Virus record (IMG/VR): IMGVR_UViG_3300028048_000040
Location: 1 to 64,000 of that record
Reading direction: 5' to 3' (one strand)
Source of the DNA: a virus
Lineage: Duplodnaviria > Caudoviricetes
DNA: 64,000 bases
A program made the translations under genes and the position numbers. Shown here one piece after another: positions 6,073 through 63,238 of the stretch. The notes below the pieces were generated by a model. It searched no databases, was not told the DNA's origin, and worked only from the letters and a program-made list of their open reading frames with translations. Positions within the stretch are counted from its first letter, which is position 1. The number at the start of each line of letters is the position of its first letter.

Positions 6073-8481
6073 TTGAAAAAGAGAGAAATAGACTTTTCTA
6101 TGATGAATCCTAAACAGAATATCAAGATTGCTAAGAACATTCAGAACAATATAAATGATATCTATCAGAATACATACTATTCTGATAATAAGGATTCCTC
6201 TTATATTGAAAACATTAGAAGAAAGATGGATCTTGATCTTAACTATCTTCAAGATAAAAATAAGATCCGTAATAATGGCGTAAATATCTCTGATCTATAT
6301 GCTAAGACATTAGCTAAGACAGATGAGGGAGTTATTAAAGAACTTAGAGGAGCATTACAAGATGAATCCATGATTACAGATATCATGGATATGTATTCTA
6401 AGAATGCTATTATCAAAGACCTAGATAGAGAGATAGATGTAGTATGTAAGTATATGCCTAAACTAGATCAAGCATTAGATATTAAAGCAGATCATGTTAT
6501 GAGTGCTGATCACTTTAATAGTGATCCACTAGAACTTACAATCAATAACAATGATTCCAATGCATCTACTAACTCTAATCCTAAATTTGGGCAGAAGAAA
6601 GACTTAGATTCTTTCAAAGAGAAATATGATATTTATAATAAAGCAAGAGCTTGGTATGAGAAAGCTGCTAAATATGGAGAATGCCCTGTATATATAACTT
6701 CATACAATAAAGCTTTACAAAGAGTAATGCAAAGAACTGGTAAATCAGACTTATTATCAGAATCTGCTATTACTGAAGCAGTGAATAGTGTTTCTGTTCC
6801 ATTAAAGTTCTCTTATACTATTCCTATTAATGAATCTATGAATGATTCAGAATTAGTAATAGAGAATAATGGAGCTATTAAAGAAGGATATACTGATATA
6901 GAGGTCGAATTAAACCCCTCAGGAGTAATACCCAGTATACTTACACAGCAAACCACTCTCAGACGCGTTTTACGAGAATCTCGTGGCGTATTTCAGGCTA
7001 AGGGCGTCAAATCTGACGACACATTACTTAGTAATGTAGGGTATCTGAAAAATATGAATAAAGAATTTCAGAAATTTGCTAAAGAAGGAGGTTCTTTAAA
7101 ACAACCTACAGCATTAGTAATTGATGGATTCTCTGATAGAGAAAAAAAGAAAAAAGAAGCTGCTAATATAGATGTAGCAGGAGCTGTTATTAAAGTTCTA
7201 GATAGAAGTATGCTCAAACCTTTATACATTGATGATACTTGTCTAGGATATTATTATATAGAAACTTCTGGTGGTATGAAGTTTGAAGAACAAACTACAT
7301 TCACATCTACATTAGGTGGTTTAAGACCTAGAAGATCTACTAGAGATAGAGAAGATCTGGATAAGAAATCTCAAATAGATGATGTATTGATTAAGATAGC
7401 TAGAAGAATATCTCAAAAGATAGATGCTAACTTCATCAATGCTAATCAGGATCTTACCCAAGAGATCTATGCTATTCTTAAATACAATGCAGATCATGGT
7501 GCTAATAGTAAAGTAGGTAAGATTAGAATAACGTTCTTGCCTCCAGAAGATGTAGTAATGATTGCATTTGATATTAATGAAAATACTCATAGAGGAAGAT
7601 CTGATCTTTATAAATCTCTATTCCCTGCTAAACTATATTCTTGCTTGTATATCTCTAATACTATTGCTCTACTTACTAGAGGATATGATAAGAGAATTTA
7701 TCAAGTAAGACAGACGGTAGATACTAATATCTCTGGTGTATTGATGAATGTTATTAACCAGATTAAACAGTCTAACTTCAATCTAAGACAGATTGAGAAC
7801 ATGAATAACATCATGAATATTACTGGTAGATTTAATGATCTAGTAATTCCTCAGAATGCTAATGGTGAATCTCCTATCAACTTTGAAGTATTACCTGGTC
7901 AGAATATAGAGATTAAAACAGAACATATGAACTCTCTAGAAGAAATGGCAGTAGATCTTACTGGTGTTACTATAGAGATGATTAATTCTCGTAAGGATGA
8001 ACAGACTGCTACTCATATTACTATGACCAACTCTAGATTCCTTATGAAGATTTATGCTAGACAGCAAGCATATCAGAAGTTCTTATCTCTAATCTGTACT
8101 AAGATTTATCAAGCAGAGTATGATACTACTGATACAGTAGAAGTTAAACTTCCACCTCCTGCATTCCTTAACTTTACAAATGTAACACAGCTTCTTGGCT
8201 TAGGTGGAGAGCTAATCAACAATATTGTTCAGATGAAGATGGGTGCTGAACAAGATGAAGAAGTTAAAGCAGAGTTTATTGGTAAATTGATGAGATACTA
8301 TTATGAAACCTTCTTACCAATGGATGAAATAGATAAACTGGCAGATGAAGCAAAAATAGAAGTAGAAGCAAGAAGACCTTCTGATCAAGTTGCTGCTGCT
8401 AGTATGCCACAACAAGGTGGTACTGAAGAAATGCCAAATACTGAAGGACCTCAAATGGGTGAACAACCACAACAATTTTAA
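6073..8481 (+). CDS. portal protein
   Basis: T4 gp20-like landmarks: LDQALDIKADHV, AKYGE..VY, TRGYDKRIYQV, DLVIP...PI..EVLPG. GGAGG SD with TTG start; late promoter at 6030-6041. Confidence 0.75.
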   Translation: MKKREIDFSMMNPKQNIKIAKNIQNNINDIYQNTYYSDNKDSSYIENIRRKMDLDLNYLQDKNKIRNNGVNISDLYAKTLAKTDEGVIKELRGALQDESMITDIMDMYSKNAIIKDLDREIDVVCKYMPKLDQALDIKADHVMSADHFNSDPLELTINNNDSNASTNSNPKFGQKKDLDSFKEKYDIYNKARAWYEKAAKYGECPVYITSYNKALQRVMQRTGKSDLLSESAITEAVNSVSVPLKFSYTIPINESMNDSELVIENNGAIKEGYTDIEVELNPSGVIPSILTQQTTLRRVLRESRGVFQAKGVKSDDTLLSNVGYLKNMNKEFQKFAKEGGSLKQPTALVIDGFSDREKKKKEAANIDVAGAVIKVLDRSMLKPLYIDDTCLGYYYIETSGGMKFEEQTTFTSTLGGLRPRRSTRDREDLDKKSQIDDVLIKIARRISQKIDANFINANQDLTQEIYAILKYNADHGANSKVGKIRITFLPPEDVVMIAFDINENTHRGRSDLYKSLFPAKLYSCLYISNTIALLTRGYDKRIYQVRQTVDTNISGVLMNVINQIKQSNFNLRQIENMNNIMNITGRFNDLVIPQNANGESPINFEVLPGQNIEIKTEHMNSLEEMAVDLTGVTIEMINSRKDEQTATHITMTNSRFLMKIYARQQAYQKFLSLICTKIYQAEYDTTDTVEVKLPPPAFLNFTNVTQLLGLGGELINNIVQMKMGAEQDEEVKAEFIGKLMRYYYETFLPMDEIDKLADEAKIEVEARRPSDQVAAASMPQQGGTEEMPNTEGPQMGEQPQQF

Positions 8482-8489
8482 CATTAAAC

Positions 8490-8587
8490 TCCCACTGCTC
8501 TGTTTCGAGCAGTGGGAATCTATAAGGAGGTATATATTAACAACAACAAGCAAAACAGAAAATGATACCGGCATATCATCATCCATT
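8490..8587 (-). ncRNA. candidate late small RNA with anti-SD (ACCUCCUUA)
   Basis: GACA-N6-TA promoter at 8598-8587, 5' hairpin 8562-8579, U-rich tract with CCUCCUUA at 8530-8523, and terminator hairpin 8490-8517. Confidence 0.45.
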
Positions 8588-8650
8588 ATACTATTGTCAA
8601 AAAAAATGAGGGACCTTTTTACAGGTCCCTCATTTAAGCTAATTTGTAGA

Positions 8651-9094
8651 TTAGTAATTAATCTTGCTGGGAAGGTTCACCTCTTTCTTTTTTCCTTTTT
8701 TGTTTTCCGAGATCAGATGGCTGAGCATCTTGGAAATATTTTCCAAGACCTCATCCTGCTTCTCGATGCGCTCCTCCAGCGCAGTGATGCCGAGGTTATT
8801 TTTCAGATTCTGGATACGCTCTTCGCGTTCCTTCATCTTATCTTCTGCGTCGGCTTCTGCGGCTTCATTGATGTTTTCAAACTGCTTCTGGCGATACTGG
8901 TTAAGTACCATATTGCCAATAGCGAGAGCACCATCAATAGCCATCCATTTGGCATTGGTGGCTTTCTTACTCTCCTTAATGAGCTCATCTTTGCTCGGAG
9001 CTTTTTCTGCCAGCTCTGCCAAGGTATCCTTGTTCTGAGCATTAGCTGCTGCAAAAGCGTTAACCAGGTTGAAGATTTCATTTACGTTTGCCAT
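8651..9094 (-). CDS. early hypothetical coiled-coil protein
   Basis: Has its own early promoter (9154-9170), AGGAGG SD and terminator (8599-8635). It is visibly more GC-rich than its neighbours. Confidence 0.8.
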   Translation of the reverse strand: MANVNEIFNLVNAFAAANAQNKDTLAELAEKAPSKDELIKESKKATNAKWMAIDGALAIGNMVLNQYRQKQFENINEAAEADAEDKMKEREERIQNLKNNLGITALEERIEKQDEVLENISKMLSHLISENKKGKKKEVNLPSKINY

Positions 9095-9153
9095 GATGAA
9101 TTTCCTCCTTAAATAACTTATGAACTACATCTTCTTGTGTAATTCTTCTATTC

Positions 9154-9170
9154 ATCACTGCTATAATATA
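9154..9170 (-). promoter_or_regulatory. early-type promoter TATATTAT-N4-GTGAT
   Basis: The motif recurs at 14591, 14893, 24612, 25129, 25811, 29228, 29895, 31693 and 62519 on the - strand, and at 15713 and 18712 on the + strand. Confidence 0.7.
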
Positions 9171-9227
9171 CAATTGAAATATACTAATTTTACAAAAAAT
9201 AAGGTATAGGGATTTCTCCCTATACCT

Positions 9228-10775
9228 TTATCTCACAAACTCTACAACTGTCTTTAATTTTTGCTGATTCACACCCTGCATCAAAGCTTTATCCCTTTCA
9301 TCTAGTTCATCTACTTGTCTATCTAGATCTTCTTGGGATAATTTTATCTTAGTTCTTTGAGTAGCATAAGTTTCAAATACTTTTTGTTTAGATCTAAAGA
9401 AAGCATTAATAGCTTTAAATCCTGTATCTACTACCTCTATATACTTAGTATCTTTAGCTCTAGTTCTACCTAAAGATTGTATAGCTAACTTAGGAGATTT
9501 AAATGGCTCATTAAGAACTATAGTCATTTCTAATCCAGCTAAGTCTAGTGCTTCTCCAGCAGATTTAGTAGTAGATAAGATTATCTTATTATCTAACTGA
9601 GCTCTCTTCATCTCTTTAGGAACAGCAGATGTATATATACCTATAGGAATATATGGAAAGTAATAATGTAACCAATTATAAGTTACCCCTATAGCATAGT
9701 TTGTTCCTATATAGATTAAAACCTTACCTTCAGGAGATGTATTGGTTCCTATGATTTCTATAAGTAATCTAAGTATCTTAAAGTAATTAGGTTTAGTTAC
9801 TAGATAATCAGTATACTTATTTCTATTGAAACCATACATATTTTGACAAGCGCCAATATCAAATGGAGTAGGATTAGAGTTGAAATGAATAGATATATAC
9901 TCAGTATGAGGATCATTCTCTTCATCAAATAGACTAAGCTTAGGAACTTTCTCATAGCATCTTTGATATATTCTGTCTTCATCTCGATCTGATCTCATAG
10001 GAGTAGCTGTAAGATAATAGGTCTTCCATACATCTGAGAAGTTGTCTATCATCATAGTATTATCAAAATATAGATGAGATTCATCATATATCTTGATTCC
10101 TATCCTTAGCATCTTAAAGAGATCATGTACCTTTTCCCATCCATTTGTCTTAGCATAAGAAGATATAGTATCATGAGAGACTAGATAAAACTTGATATGC
10201 TTAGGATTATGTAATCCATTCATAAGTTTTACTATAGATGCTTTGCCTGCTATGATATAGATTTGATCTTCAGTTAAATCTGTATACTGTAGTATTCTTT
10301 CTTTCCATTGTTGTATCCAGTCTAAGCTATATGTAATCATCATAGTCTTTACTCTATAATATGCAAATACAGCTATAGCAACAAATGTCTTACCAACTCC
10401 AGTATGAAGATTTAAGAATATCTGAGGTCTTTCTCTATTACCACAGTATTGATCAGCACCTACACAGAATTTTAATGCCTCTACTTGTCTTTCATCCCTA
10501 GGTTTGATCTTCATTTGAACCATAGAGAGTTTATCAAATGGGTCTGGCTCATACTTAATAAACAATTCTCCATTAAAGTTTCTCTCTATAGCAAATTGAT
10601 CCATTCCTGATGGTAGGTAAAGATCTTTATTTCTTTTATCATAATACATACCAAAAGGTTCTCTTCTAAATCTTGCTTTATTCCATATAGAGAACATCTT
10701 CTCTAATATTGGACTATCACCTATATCATAGTTATGAACTATGGTACAAGTGTGCCTTCGTTCTACTTTAATCAT
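9228..10775 (-). CDS. superfamily 2 helicase (UvsW/Rad25-like)
   Basis: Q motif (PRDERQ), Walker A TGVGKT, DESH, LTATP, QSLGR. Confidence 0.9.
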   Translation of the reverse strand: MIKVERRHTCTIVHNYDIGDSPILEKMFSIWNKARFRREPFGMYYDKRNKDLYLPSGMDQFAIERNFNGELFIKYEPDPFDKLSMVQMKIKPRDERQVEALKFCVGADQYCGNRERPQIFLNLHTGVGKTFVAIAVFAYYRVKTMMITYSLDWIQQWKERILQYTDLTEDQIYIIAGKASIVKLMNGLHNPKHIKFYLVSHDTISSYAKTNGWEKVHDLFKMLRIGIKIYDESHLYFDNTMMIDNFSDVWKTYYLTATPMRSDRDEDRIYQRCYEKVPKLSLFDEENDPHTEYISIHFNSNPTPFDIGACQNMYGFNRNKYTDYLVTKPNYFKILRLLIEIIGTNTSPEGKVLIYIGTNYAIGVTYNWLHYYFPYIPIGIYTSAVPKEMKRAQLDNKIILSTTKSAGEALDLAGLEMTIVLNEPFKSPKLAIQSLGRTRAKDTKYIEVVDTGFKAINAFFRSKQKVFETYATQRTKIKLSQEDLDRQVDELDERDKALMQGVNQQKLKTVVEFVR

Positions 10776-14490: not shown

Positions 14491-14619
14491 GCTGTTTCCT
14501 CTCCTTTAGAAAAAATTCATAAAATACCCTTTTGATATAATGTGTTGAAAGGTATTAAAAGTTATTATCCTTTCCTCCTTTCTCACTTATATAGTATATT
14601 TCTATTTTTTAGTTTACCT

Positions 14620-14888: not shown

Positions 14889-14933
14889 ATAAATAGTATA
14901 TAACTGAAAAAAATTTTAATAAGACAATATTGC

Positions 14934-23234: not shown

Positions 23235-23297
23235 GTGAACAATATATTAGTATAAGAATCACTCCTAGATAACTATGCAATAGTAGTGCGGTAAGTA

Positions 23298-23335
23298 CCC
23301 TGTAGCCTTAATTGGCTACAGGGATATCTTTTTTT
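23298..23335. terminator. intrinsic terminator between convergent genes
   Basis: CCCTGTAGCC-TTAATT-GGCTACAGGG followed by a T run. Confidence 0.8.
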
Positions 23336-30151: not shown

Positions 30152-30203
30152 TTATTTTGAGCCTTCTTACAATAATATAATCATATAAGGAGGTAAATTA
30201 ACT

Positions 30204-31217
30204 ATGAAGCAGGTTATTGAAATCGTAGATGACGATAATGATCAGAAAGCAGAATATGGGCTTTCTGCATCATCTTTAGTTCAAGAAGGAAATGAAGATG
30301 TGATTGATACACCAGTACAGGTTCCTAAAAAGAGAGGTCCCGGCAGACCACCAAAAAACAAAGAAGCTGATCTAAACTCTAATACCTATACTGATATTGT
30401 TGTATCTGATAAGAAGAGAAATACTCCAGATAGTTTAGTAAAGGAATATGAGAAAGGTTACTATGATAATGCTAAACTTCTATATGGTGCTATAGCTCAG
30501 ACTGAACAAGTATATGCCAATATAGAAGAAGAGTTAGATAAGTATCGTAATAATAGAGCATATGGTGGTAAGAATCGTGCTATGAATATATCACAATTCA
30601 TGAGCACTCAAGTAGGAGTTATTTCCACTAAGATTAATGCAGTAAGAGAATTGAACTCTGTAAGAAATAAGATTAATGATCTTGTAATGAAGAAAGAACA
30701 GATGTTGAAAGATACTGGAGAAGATAATGCAGATAAGAATATTATGGATGCTTATTATGCATTAGTAAATGCTCCAAGATACGGTCTTCCTCAGTTTAAT
30801 CAACAGCTTTCTCCTACTACTATTAATACTGGTACTATGATCTCTGGTAATCAATTACCTTCCTCAGGTATAGTAACAGCAGGTACAAATAATGTTAAAC
30901 CAGTTAACAACAATAATCCAGTAGATAAACAGTTTGAAGACTATCAGAACAATCTAAATCCAATACAAAAAAGAATGATTGCTCAGAATGATCCTAATGT
31001 AAAGACTGTAGTGTGCTATGATGCATCTACTGGTAATAAGTGGTTTGATGTGGTAAATGTACAGACTGGTATGTCTATTCCTGGTATTCAAAGACCAGCA
31101 GAGTTCTTATTAGATGATATGAGAGTAGATACTAGAAATGCTATTGCCGTAAACTCCAATACTAATATGACTTTCCCTCTAGTAATCTTAGGAACTAGAG
31201 CAGCAGATGAGTTATAA
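30204..31217 (+). CDS. hypothetical late protein with AT-hook-like motif
   Basis: KKRGPGRPPK; late promoter 30168-30179. Confidence 0.75.
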   Translation: MKQVIEIVDDDNDQKAEYGLSASSLVQEGNEDVIDTPVQVPKKRGPGRPPKNKEADLNSNTYTDIVVSDKKRNTPDSLVKEYEKGYYDNAKLLYGAIAQTEQVYANIEEELDKYRNNRAYGGKNRAMNISQFMSTQVGVISTKINAVRELNSVRNKINDLVMKKEQMLKDTGEDNADKNIMDAYYALVNAPRYGLPQFNQQLSPTTINTGTMISGNQLPSSGIVTAGTNNVKPVNNNNPVDKQFEDYQNNLNPIQKRMIAQNDPNVKTVVCYDASTGNKWFDVVNVQTGMSIPGIQRPAEFLLDDMRVDTRNAIAVNSNTNMTFPLVILGTRAADEL

Positions 31218-31263
31218 AAAATAATCCCAAGAGCTATAATGCTCTTGGGACTTTATGTAGGAT

Positions 31264-31741: not shown

Positions 31742-33454
31742 TTATGATCTCTTATTCCAATTATTAGCATCACTTTTAACTTTATTCCACATATCAAATG
31801 CAGTAATACTAGATTCATTGTTATGAGGTTCTGTATCTGTAACTACATTATATGTTTTCCAAAGCTTATTCAATCCAGGAGACCATTTATCTTCTTCAGG
31901 ATTTGGAACAGTAACTTCACAGTTAATATATTTACTATAGTTAGTTTTATATGGAAGAGTTTCTACAGTAATAGGAATATCTATAAATAGTTTTAGTCTA
32001 AGTAGATAGTTGTAGTAATAGTAGTAAGTCATAATATTCTTATTATCTGGAATATTGTCATAAAGAACACCATTCTCACCAGTATTCACAATAATATGAG
32101 CAGGATCTGTAGCATTAGGATCTGTATAGAATGCATCTGTTAATGGCTGAATGAATAACCAATATAGGTCTTGATGTTTACCAAAGTTATTATTAACCAT
32201 ATCTACACTCATGAATAGATCTCCAAGAGTATATATATCTATCTTATTATTAGCTAGATCAAATACCATTCCCCATTCATCTGGCTGTATAGGAATAGAT
32301 GGATTTAATACTGTACCAGCATCATACTCAAACTCTACATTATATATATTAGAGTGTTTCTTATATGGAACATGTTTCTTATGAGCCATATCTATCCAGA
32401 ATACTTTCTGATTAGTAGTGGTATTGATAGCACTAGTTAATCCTATCTTTACTGGAACACCATTATATAACATATGACCTTGACTATCTACTTGCATTAG
32501 AGCATTCTTAACTACAAATTCTAGATATATCTTTTGGTCTGTAGGAATAGGCCAAGCAAGGGTAGATATATCATTAGAATCAGGAGATCTTAAAATCATT
32601 CCTAATGGATTAGTTCCATAAGCCATATTAACAGGATTAGAATGAATCAGATATGGATTTCTATGAGTTTCTATTGGAAAGTTTATAGGTGCTATATCAT
32701 TTTGAGCTTCTACTTCTACAATACAGTTTTGTTCTACTGGAGGTTTAGTATATACTTCTCCAGCTTGTATAGTAGTATAAATATCCCATATAGCAGCTTT
32801 CTTGTAATACCAGCATTGATACAGACTCCAATATCCTTCTGGTAGATATTCACATTTATATCTACCAAAGTTTACAGATCCAGATACTAGTTCATCTTCT
32901 TGACAAGTTATACAAAAATAAAATAAATCTGGTTCTGAATTAATATCAAATTCAGTAGGTTTAAAGGAATACATTCTATTCCCTTCTACATAGATAGTTA
33001 TAGTATTAATAGTAGTATCTACACCAATACCAATAACATGATTTACCATAGGAACTCTAGACCCAAGTTTCTGTGTATTCTTGGTTATGGTAACATTAGC
33101 ATTATATTTATATCTTTCTACTGATTGAAAACTAGTAGGATGAGTCCAATCTTTTGGATCAGAATAATAATATGGATTGCAATAAAAAATAGAACCTAAA
33201 CACATATCTGCTGCTAATATACCAACAGATGGTTCTTTATGTATTCCTACATGTATAGGAAGGTGTCTCATCTTTGCATTAGACGGGTGTTGTTTAATAG
33301 TAAATTCCATATAAGCCTTAGAATATTTAGGAATAGGCTTACTGGATAGAATAGTAAATTTCTTTTTACAAGTGAACTTCTCTCCACTAACAATGGAATT
33401 AGATTGCACTGAATCTCCATCATAAGCAACAGGAAGAATTCTATTCGCACTCAA
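31742..33454 (-). CDS. tandem SPRY/B30.2-like domain protein
   Basis: Two repeats: YMEF...IGIGVD...ITIYVEG...VNFG...LPEGY and YLEF...WGMVFDL...IDIY...VNTG. TTG start; late promoter 33480-33491. Confidence 0.6.
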   Translation of the reverse strand: MSANRILPVAYDGDSVQSNSIVSGEKFTCKKKFTILSSKPIPKYSKAYMEFTIKQHPSNAKMRHLPIHVGIHKEPSVGILAADMCLGSIFYCNPYYYSDPKDWTHPTSFQSVERYKYNANVTITKNTQKLGSRVPMVNHVIGIGVDTTINTITIYVEGNRMYSFKPTEFDINSEPDLFYFCITCQEDELVSGSVNFGRYKCEYLPEGYWSLYQCWYYKKAAIWDIYTTIQAGEVYTKPPVEQNCIVEVEAQNDIAPINFPIETHRNPYLIHSNPVNMAYGTNPLGMILRSPDSNDISTLAWPIPTDQKIYLEFVVKNALMQVDSQGHMLYNGVPVKIGLTSAINTTTNQKVFWIDMAHKKHVPYKKHSNIYNVEFEYDAGTVLNPSIPIQPDEWGMVFDLANNKIDIYTLGDLFMSVDMVNNNFGKHQDLYWLFIQPLTDAFYTDPNATDPAHIIVNTGENGVLYDNIPDNKNIMTYYYYYNYLLRLKLFIDIPITVETLPYKTNYSKYINCEVTVPNPEEDKWSPGLNKLWKTYNVVTDTEPHNNESSITAFDMWNKVKSDANNWNKRS

Positions 33455-63196: not shown

Positions 63197-63238
63197 CAAA
63201 GTATATCCCTGATGGTCTAAGACCATCAGGGTGAATTA

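Follow-up and report, generated by a model that had tools for sequence, protein, structure and literature searches.

Genome G000 is a virus record of 342,328 bp, and the DNA analysed here (the window), its first 64 kb, has 32% G+C. Gene calling on the full genome, with ATG, GTG and TTG as the only accepted starts, gave 356 genes. The portal protein is 22–29% identical to the portals of Bacillus phages AR9 and PBS1 and of Staphylococcus jumbo phages, a likeness that places the phage near these viruses, and by its sequence the phage is an uncultured AR9/PBS1-like jumbo phage. We studied the gap in which the portal gene and a 147-aa gene converge (Table 1). Searching phage records at the DNA level returned no match, and Rfam at permissive thresholds over positions 7500–9500 gave sub-threshold noise only, the best hit being the L20 leader at 28.8 bits against a gathering score of 58.7. 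The spacer within the gap has no counterpart elsewhere in G000 or among 74 related loci. Exact-word scans of viral contigs for the spacer recovered two already known sister contigs only, and exact-protein look-ups for RNA-derived contigs returned DNA assemblies of the same strain only.

Table 1. Features in and around the portal/147-aa gene gap, in window coordinates
Feature	Position	Strand	Description
Portal gene	6073..8481	+	left of the gap
Convergent gap, portal/147-aa gene	8482-8650		169 nt
Perfect-identity block versus sister phage G001	8485..8629	both	145 nt
Hairpin 1	8485..8522	-	16 bp, -27.8 kcal/mol; core 8490-8517
RBS-like TAAGGAGGT	8523..8531	+	9 nt; orphan, no ATG/GTG/TTG 2-13 nt downstream
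U-rich tract	8523..8553	-	ends in ACCUCCUUA (8531-8523); predicted unpaired; directly 5′ of the hairpin 1 stem
Hydrophobic frame, 20 codons	8520..8582	-	between the predicted start and hairpin 1; no SD
Tiny plus-strand frames	8536..8609	+	ATT..TGA, 9 codons (8536-8565); ATG..TGA, 15 codons (8562-8609); ATGA overlap
5′ terminal hairpin of the putative RNA	8554..8587	-	fold prediction
Late-promoter-like motif GACA-N6-TA, GACAATAGTATA	8587..8598	-	predicted start A8587; abuts T8 of the upstream terminator
Hairpin 2 and T8	8604..8635	-	canonical terminator of the 147-aa gene; site of the single shared hairpin of relatives
147-aa gene	8651..9094	-	convergent with the portal gene; helicase gene next

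Layout of the gap and parts of a putative minus-strand RNA

Eleven convergent gene pairs in G000 share a single hairpin, in gaps of about 35–65 nt. These shared hairpins are bidirectional and often have a weak U tail on one side (for example 23235–23333, 31218–31263 and 63197–63238), and from this pattern hairpin-only termination seems to be usual for the polymerases of this phage. The portal/147-aa gap holds two hairpins and an 85-nt spacer instead. Relatives with portal identities of 68% or less have an A-run and one hairpin after the portal gene, nothing more, and their hairpin is placed and shaped like hairpin 2. Positions 8482–8599 (about 118 nt) are thus a lineage-specific insert, and the element was not found in any more distant relative examined. 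Given the one-hairpin norm in G000 and among the relatives, the second hairpin and the spacer need explaining. As a separate observation, two relatives with portal identities of 52–57% carry a small minus-strand frame after the portal gene and before a plus-strand terminator (L005:8503-8700 and L007:8503-8700); the two frames, of 17 and 27 codons, share the start MN[LV]IS..WE.

The original prediction placed in this gap a small RNA transcribed from a late promoter on the minus strand, and the parts that it listed are present in the order given: GACA-N6-TA, read directly from the letters at 8598–8587; a short hairpin after the motif at 8587–8554; a U-rich tract ending in AUAUACCUCCUUAUAG at 8535–8520; and an 11-bp core hairpin at 8490–8517. 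A minus-strand reading uses the insert fully, with its first base in the GACA and its last paired stem base at 8485. Both the MFE and the centroid fold of the putative RNA consist of a 5′ hairpin, an unpaired C-rich motif and a 3′ terminator-like hairpin. ACCUCCUUA is predicted to be unpaired in both; the U-rich tract is wholly unpaired in the centroid, and in the MFE only its 5′ UUAAUAU pairs, with the 3′ tail. Taken alone, the 5′ hairpin gave a z score of −0.79 against shuffles, which is not significant, and it was rejected as an independent structure.

Hairpin 1 differs in length between the two strands. Because of two G-U pairs it reaches its full 16 bp on the minus strand, and on the plus strand it is limited to the 11-bp core (−21.9 kcal/mol). 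Its minus-strand tail reads UAAUGUUAAAA after the 16-bp stem and AGUUUAAUGUU after the 11-bp core. As a G+C-rich stem-loop it has the form expected of an intrinsic terminator; a proper U run is missing, and a simple terminator scan calls it on neither strand. Many of the hairpins shared by convergent pairs in G000 have tails as weak as this on one side.

The same strand also offers two reading frames that could encode a small hydrophobic peptide. The first opens with an AUG at 8586 that is nearly leaderless, the predicted start lying 1 nt before it, and had been put forward earlier as a leaderless alternative to the RNA; the second, of 20 codons (8582–8520), just fills the space from the start to the terminator. 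The frame from 8586 fits poorly, since it has no stop before hairpin 1 and continues, antisense, into the portal gene to a length of 90 codons. A 5-nt leader that lacks an SD precedes the 20-codon frame, and the hydrophobicity of either product follows from U-richness in any frame. We consider it highly improbable that a peptide is the product of this strand.

Late-promoter motifs in the phage genome

Late promoters of AR9 have the form AACA-N6-T-A/G, whose last base is the start site, and they also drive antisense RNAs and internal starts (PMC5312081). The motif at 8598–8587 shares this geometry, with ACA at −10 to −8 separated by six bases from T and A/G, and a predicted start at the final A. 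It differs from the AR9 pattern at −11, where A is essential in vitro and any substitution abolishes AR9 transcription (PMC5449584), whereas the base here is G, at 8598. As a promoter, GACA at 8598 would be acceptable only by the statistics of this phage itself. Across G000, the density of GACA-N6-TA upstream of genes is 0.65/kb in sense and 0.15/kb in antisense orientation, against 0.10/kb in coding sequence, a 4–6-fold enrichment that makes it the most sense-enriched variant, and 18 of its 22 sense sites lie 28–68 nt before a start codon. Upstream enrichment is seen for the AACA and CACA variants too and is absent for TACA. By this enrichment GACA-N6-TA is a legitimate late-promoter variant in this phage, which bears out the late-promoter status first proposed for the motif, and the AR9 rule for −11 appears to be relaxed here, since A, C and G at that position are all enriched upstream of genes.

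The late motif carries about 9–10 bits, with little information outside six fixed letters, and about 0.1 chance matches to VACA-N6-TA are expected on one strand of the spacer. The window contains 101 copies of VACA-N6-TA against 167 expected from shuffles, a depletion that fits selection against stray promoters. Sixty such sites in G000 lie 24–80 nt before a start codon. The motif at 8598–8587 does not have this placement, as no minus-strand gene lies downstream and hairpin 1 comes next; taken together, convergent gaps are not enriched in the late motif.

Other promoter readings of the same DNA were rejected. The long, strong early-promoter consensus of G000 is (A/T)GAGTAAA-N13/14-TATATACTAT-N5-TG, present at about 50 intergenic sites (for example at window positions 14900, 15713, 18712 and 31700) and different in sequence from the AR9 early consensus; TATACTAT occurs 54 times in all in the intergenic DNA of G000. 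The plus-strand TATACTAT at 8587–8594 has no A before it, no GAGTAAA upstream and no TG downstream, and resembles the 38 chance copies found in coding DNA. A minus-strand sigma-70 reading, TTGACA..TATAAT, has a spacer of 4 nt, and a promoter scan was empty there.

Conservation of the block and the adjoining gene unit

The same gap is present in contigs of a sister phage (L003, L004 and L011, all of one strain), and the whole sister genome, G001, was aligned to G000. In the portal gene 135 of 2409 aligned positions differ, about 5.5 per 100 nt, with differences up to 8464 and 8484, and other nearby gaps are about 4.2% different. From 8485 to 8629, the spacer with CCUCCUUA included, there are no differences. 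Identical runs of at least 145 nt number 14 in the 342-kb comparison; only this one is wholly intergenic, and it is the longest such run of the genome pair. Random 86-nt intergenic windows are identical to the sister in 1.3% of cases, and by identity the portal/147-aa gap stands fifth among 113 gaps. The identity of the block argues for constraint on the spacer, beyond the hairpins, on one pairwise comparison made beside a swapped cassette. This conservation is strand-neutral, as zero substitutions in the block leave no covariation to tell which strand matters. Orphan AGGAGG sites in general showed no link with conservation except at the 8.5-kb site.

The adjoining 147-aa unit, with its promoter region (8640–9227), is 66–80% identical to the sister, and both of its flanks are about 94.5% identical; as read from the alignment, it is a swapped gene unit that has a terminator hairpin, perfectly kept in the sister, at either edge (8604–8635 and 9188–9228). 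Since this cassette adjoins the block, recombination could have homogenised the block. In T4-type phages, PeSL cassettes, which place a promoter and a stem-loop terminator at the edge of a unit swapped between close relatives, mediate gene shuffling (PMC2839356). By that precedent the block might be kept identical as a recombination boundary for exchange of the 147-aa gene unit, with no trans-acting RNA needed, and both the divergence of the unit between its similar flanks and the perfectly kept hairpins at its two edges speak for such a role. We regard it as quite unlikely, however. The right-hand perfect block is only about 41 nt long, against 145 nt here, and recombination needs homology, yet by itself erases no existing differences left of the crossover. 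PeSLs are moreover repeated, sigma-70-type and early (PMC2839356), whereas the 8.5-kb block is late-type and single-copy in G000, which speaks against a repeated cassette. The comparison also shows that swapped gene cassettes of these phages have gene-less units and terminators at their edges.

On the plus strand the letters of the tract are a plain consensus RBS. As had been noted, TAAGGAGGT has no ATG, GTG or TTG at SD distance (2–13 nt), and it could be the orphaned RBS of a deleted plus-strand gene that once stood after the portal gene, behind hairpin 1. The leftovers of that gene would be a few first codons (ATT, formerly perhaps ATG) and the last 15 codons to the TGA at the terminator; the minus-strand motif would be there by chance, with a probability of about 0.1 for such a match, and nothing functional would be made. 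The perfection of the RBS agrees with this, as do the two short plus-strand frames, which lie in different frames, fit remnants of a start and an end, and include one that stops at hairpin 2. Two relatives (L010 and L066) have a plus-strand gene after the portal gene, and other orphan strong RBSs exist, such as the one at 209929 (minus strand), which is sense and lies between a gene and its terminator. The relic is at odds with the conservation and with the strand bias of hairpin 1. Neutral sequence should be no less diverged than the flanks, so that 4–7 or more changes would be expected in the 85-nt spacer; none is seen, in what is the best-conserved intergenic block of the genome pair, and the 5 bp of extra length that hairpin 1 has on the minus strand are left unexplained. 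We hold a relic to be a possible, though less likely, origin of the locus and the main rival to a small RNA. If that is what it is, it carries a warning, for with a late promoter of about 10 bits any orphan RBS can mimic an anti-SD small RNA from the other strand.

The same plus-strand frames might alternatively be in use, as an element of the portal gene 3′ UTR. The strong SD would then load ribosomes on the ATT-started 9-codon frame, coupled through the ATGA to the 15-codon frame that ends at hairpin 2, or would itself serve as a ribosome-binding stabiliser. The strand-neutral conservation of the block is compatible with this; the ATGA overlap and a stop codon placed at the terminator amount to ordinary gene punctuation, and strong-SD mini-ORFs occur elsewhere in G000, for example at 153819 and 217530. 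A canonical start is lacking, though, and none of the 356 called genes starts with ATT (the caller being limited to ATG/GTG/TTG). In a separate scan of G000 no gene had ATT, ATA, ATC or CTG as its sole RBS-proximal start, and an ATT or other unusual start for the plus-strand frame was rejected as having no support elsewhere in the genome. The peptides are of low complexity, no plus-strand promoter is present, and hairpin 1 stands between the portal gene and the SD. A working plus-strand element seems to us improbable.

Complementarity to ribosome-binding sites and the putative late unit

ACCUCCUUA is the complement of the strong RBS consensus of this phage. Its plus-strand counterpart, TAAGGAGGT, is present in 4 copies in the window where 0.61 would be expected, more than chance gives, and the other three copies are working RBSs. 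The 16-of-17 match to the RBS of gene 31742..33454, from which the original prediction argued, is real, and so are the matches to other strong RBSs, which are exact over 12 nt at 30184 and 60429. Specific targeting does not follow from them. A partner as good as 16/17 is found for 14 of 112 AAGGAGG sites (12.5%; P ~0.125). The best predicted duplex of the tract with the initiation regions of the phage has −26.3 kcal/mol, with 30204..31217; when 70 real RBS regions were reverse-complemented as controls, 81% found a target at least as good. The tract would pair with every strong RBS, so that it has no evident specificity.

The wider idea of a family of anti-SD RNAs in the phage fared no better. 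CCUCC occurs 0 times in the 2.4 kb of 12 gene-less stretches led by early promoters, and 3 of 13 orphan AGGAGG sites have an antisense late motif upstream, which equals the chance expectation. With ordinary target matches, and with no CCUCC in the early-promoter-led stretches and no homology to a unit at 153.8 kb, neither a specific target nor an anti-SD RNA family is supported; a generic anti-SD seed in the putative RNA is possible.

The 153.8-kb unit (G000:153753-153915, plus strand) has an architecture like that of the 8.5-kb unit, with AACA-N6-TA, a 5′ hairpin, a U-rich tract containing CCUCCU and two CUCCUUU, and a hairpin. It includes a 112-nt block identical to the sister phage, and its opposite strand reads as strong SDs with 4–5-codon frames. 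Paralogy between the two units was rejected, their alignment being no better than shuffles.

Based on these comparisons, we tentatively prefer to read 8482–8599 as a lineage-specific, conserved, self-contained gene-less late unit, and an RNA of about 100–110 nt may be made from its minus strand. The non-virion RNA polymerase would start at A8587 from GACA-N6-TA, a motif that directly adjoins the T8 of the 147-aa gene terminator. The RNA would fold into its 5′ hairpin and leave about 30 nt of U-rich sequence, ending in ACCUCCUUA, unpaired, and transcription would stop at hairpin 1, which would set the length of the RNA. Strong ribosome-binding sites of the UAAGGAGGU type would be bound by the exposed tract, and initiation on them lowered, in the manner of C-rich Rsa-type RNAs of Bacillota; with any portal mRNA that extends past hairpin 1 the tract would form a perfect duplex as well. 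Sequence comparison bears out the anatomy of the insert, its restriction to one lineage, its exceptional conservation, the stronger minus-strand form of hairpin 1 and the use of GACA-type late promoters by this phage; transcription of the unit, the position of the RNA end and an effect on translation are inferred. The original prediction is in this way partly supported, with its specific targeting left unsupported. If the RNA is real, the AR9-like jumbo phages, for which no late polymerase-specific small RNA has been described, would gain one.

In the jumbo phages 201phi2-1 and phiKZ, ONT-cappable-seq has revealed short intergenic small RNAs that run from a start site to a terminator (PMC11512511). 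Like the 8.5-kb unit, these belong to giant phages with their own multisubunit RNA polymerases, and they span less than 250 nt, have a terminator after the start site and contain no ORF. They differ in having been seen as transcripts and in that one is conserved across genera, whereas the 8.5-kb unit is predicted and confined to one narrow lineage; its promoter is AR9-type and theirs are phiKZ-type. In Bacillota, RNAs with C-rich (UCCC) seeds, namely RsaE/RoxS, other Rsa RNAs and RNAIII, bind SD sequences through unpaired UCCC (PMC2790875). The putative RNA shares with them a 5′ hairpin, an unpaired pyrimidine- or C-rich motif complementary to the SD, a 3′ terminator hairpin and a proposed block of the initiation complex. 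The UCCC lies in loops there, whereas here the full 9-nt ACCUCCUUA would be presented once, in a linear tract of a phage-encoded RNA. The putative RNA has no homology to the Rsa-type RNAs or to any Rfam family at gathering score, and its target complementarity is no better than that of any anti-RBS sequence. The 201phi2-1 start-to-terminator RNAs appear to be the closest experimentally seen likeness, and the Rsa-type RNAs the closest by design; the putative RNA is assigned to neither type, as it shows no homology to a described family.

The 3′ tail of 16S rRNA, the anti-Shine-Dalgarno sequence, docks on SD sequences, and ACCUCCUUA is letter for letter the core of that docking tail. The likeness is limited to this 9-nt identity, the unavoidable complement of a consensus RBS, and extends to no other rRNA feature (no Rfam match). 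A late RNA might nevertheless display ACCUCCUUA as a decoy that titrates the strongest SD sites, and we consider this distinctly doubtful. Such a decoy would re-balance phage and host translation late in infection and would act as a ribosome-tail mimic, not as a gene-specific antisense RNA. Were the RNA real, a perfect 9-nt anti-SD in an otherwise unstructured tract would be a clean test of phage translation tuning by ribosome-tail mimics.

Several strong SDs lie in unusual positions elsewhere in the genome. A second orphan strong RBS, TTAAGGAGGTATATTTAACAGCAA, is found in G000:209811-209959, between a 61-aa gene and its terminator, with its SD at 209929 on the minus strand; it has no start codon, is sense to local transcription, and is similar in sequence to the 8.5-kb site. 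AGGAGG at window positions 14579 and 31674 (both minus strand) stands 12–25 nt after early promoter starts and far upstream of the real RBS of the gene, and may act there as a 5′ ribosome-binding stabiliser element. Strong SDs are followed by frames of 1–8 codons at G000:217489-217530 (minus strand; MNRIRDKN, then a stop), 185288 (plus strand; ATG-TAA) and 153819 (minus strand; MSKQN, then a stop). The leader of gene 216819..217442 contains a hairpin that the first of these mini-frames overlaps, and this frame resembles a leader peptide.
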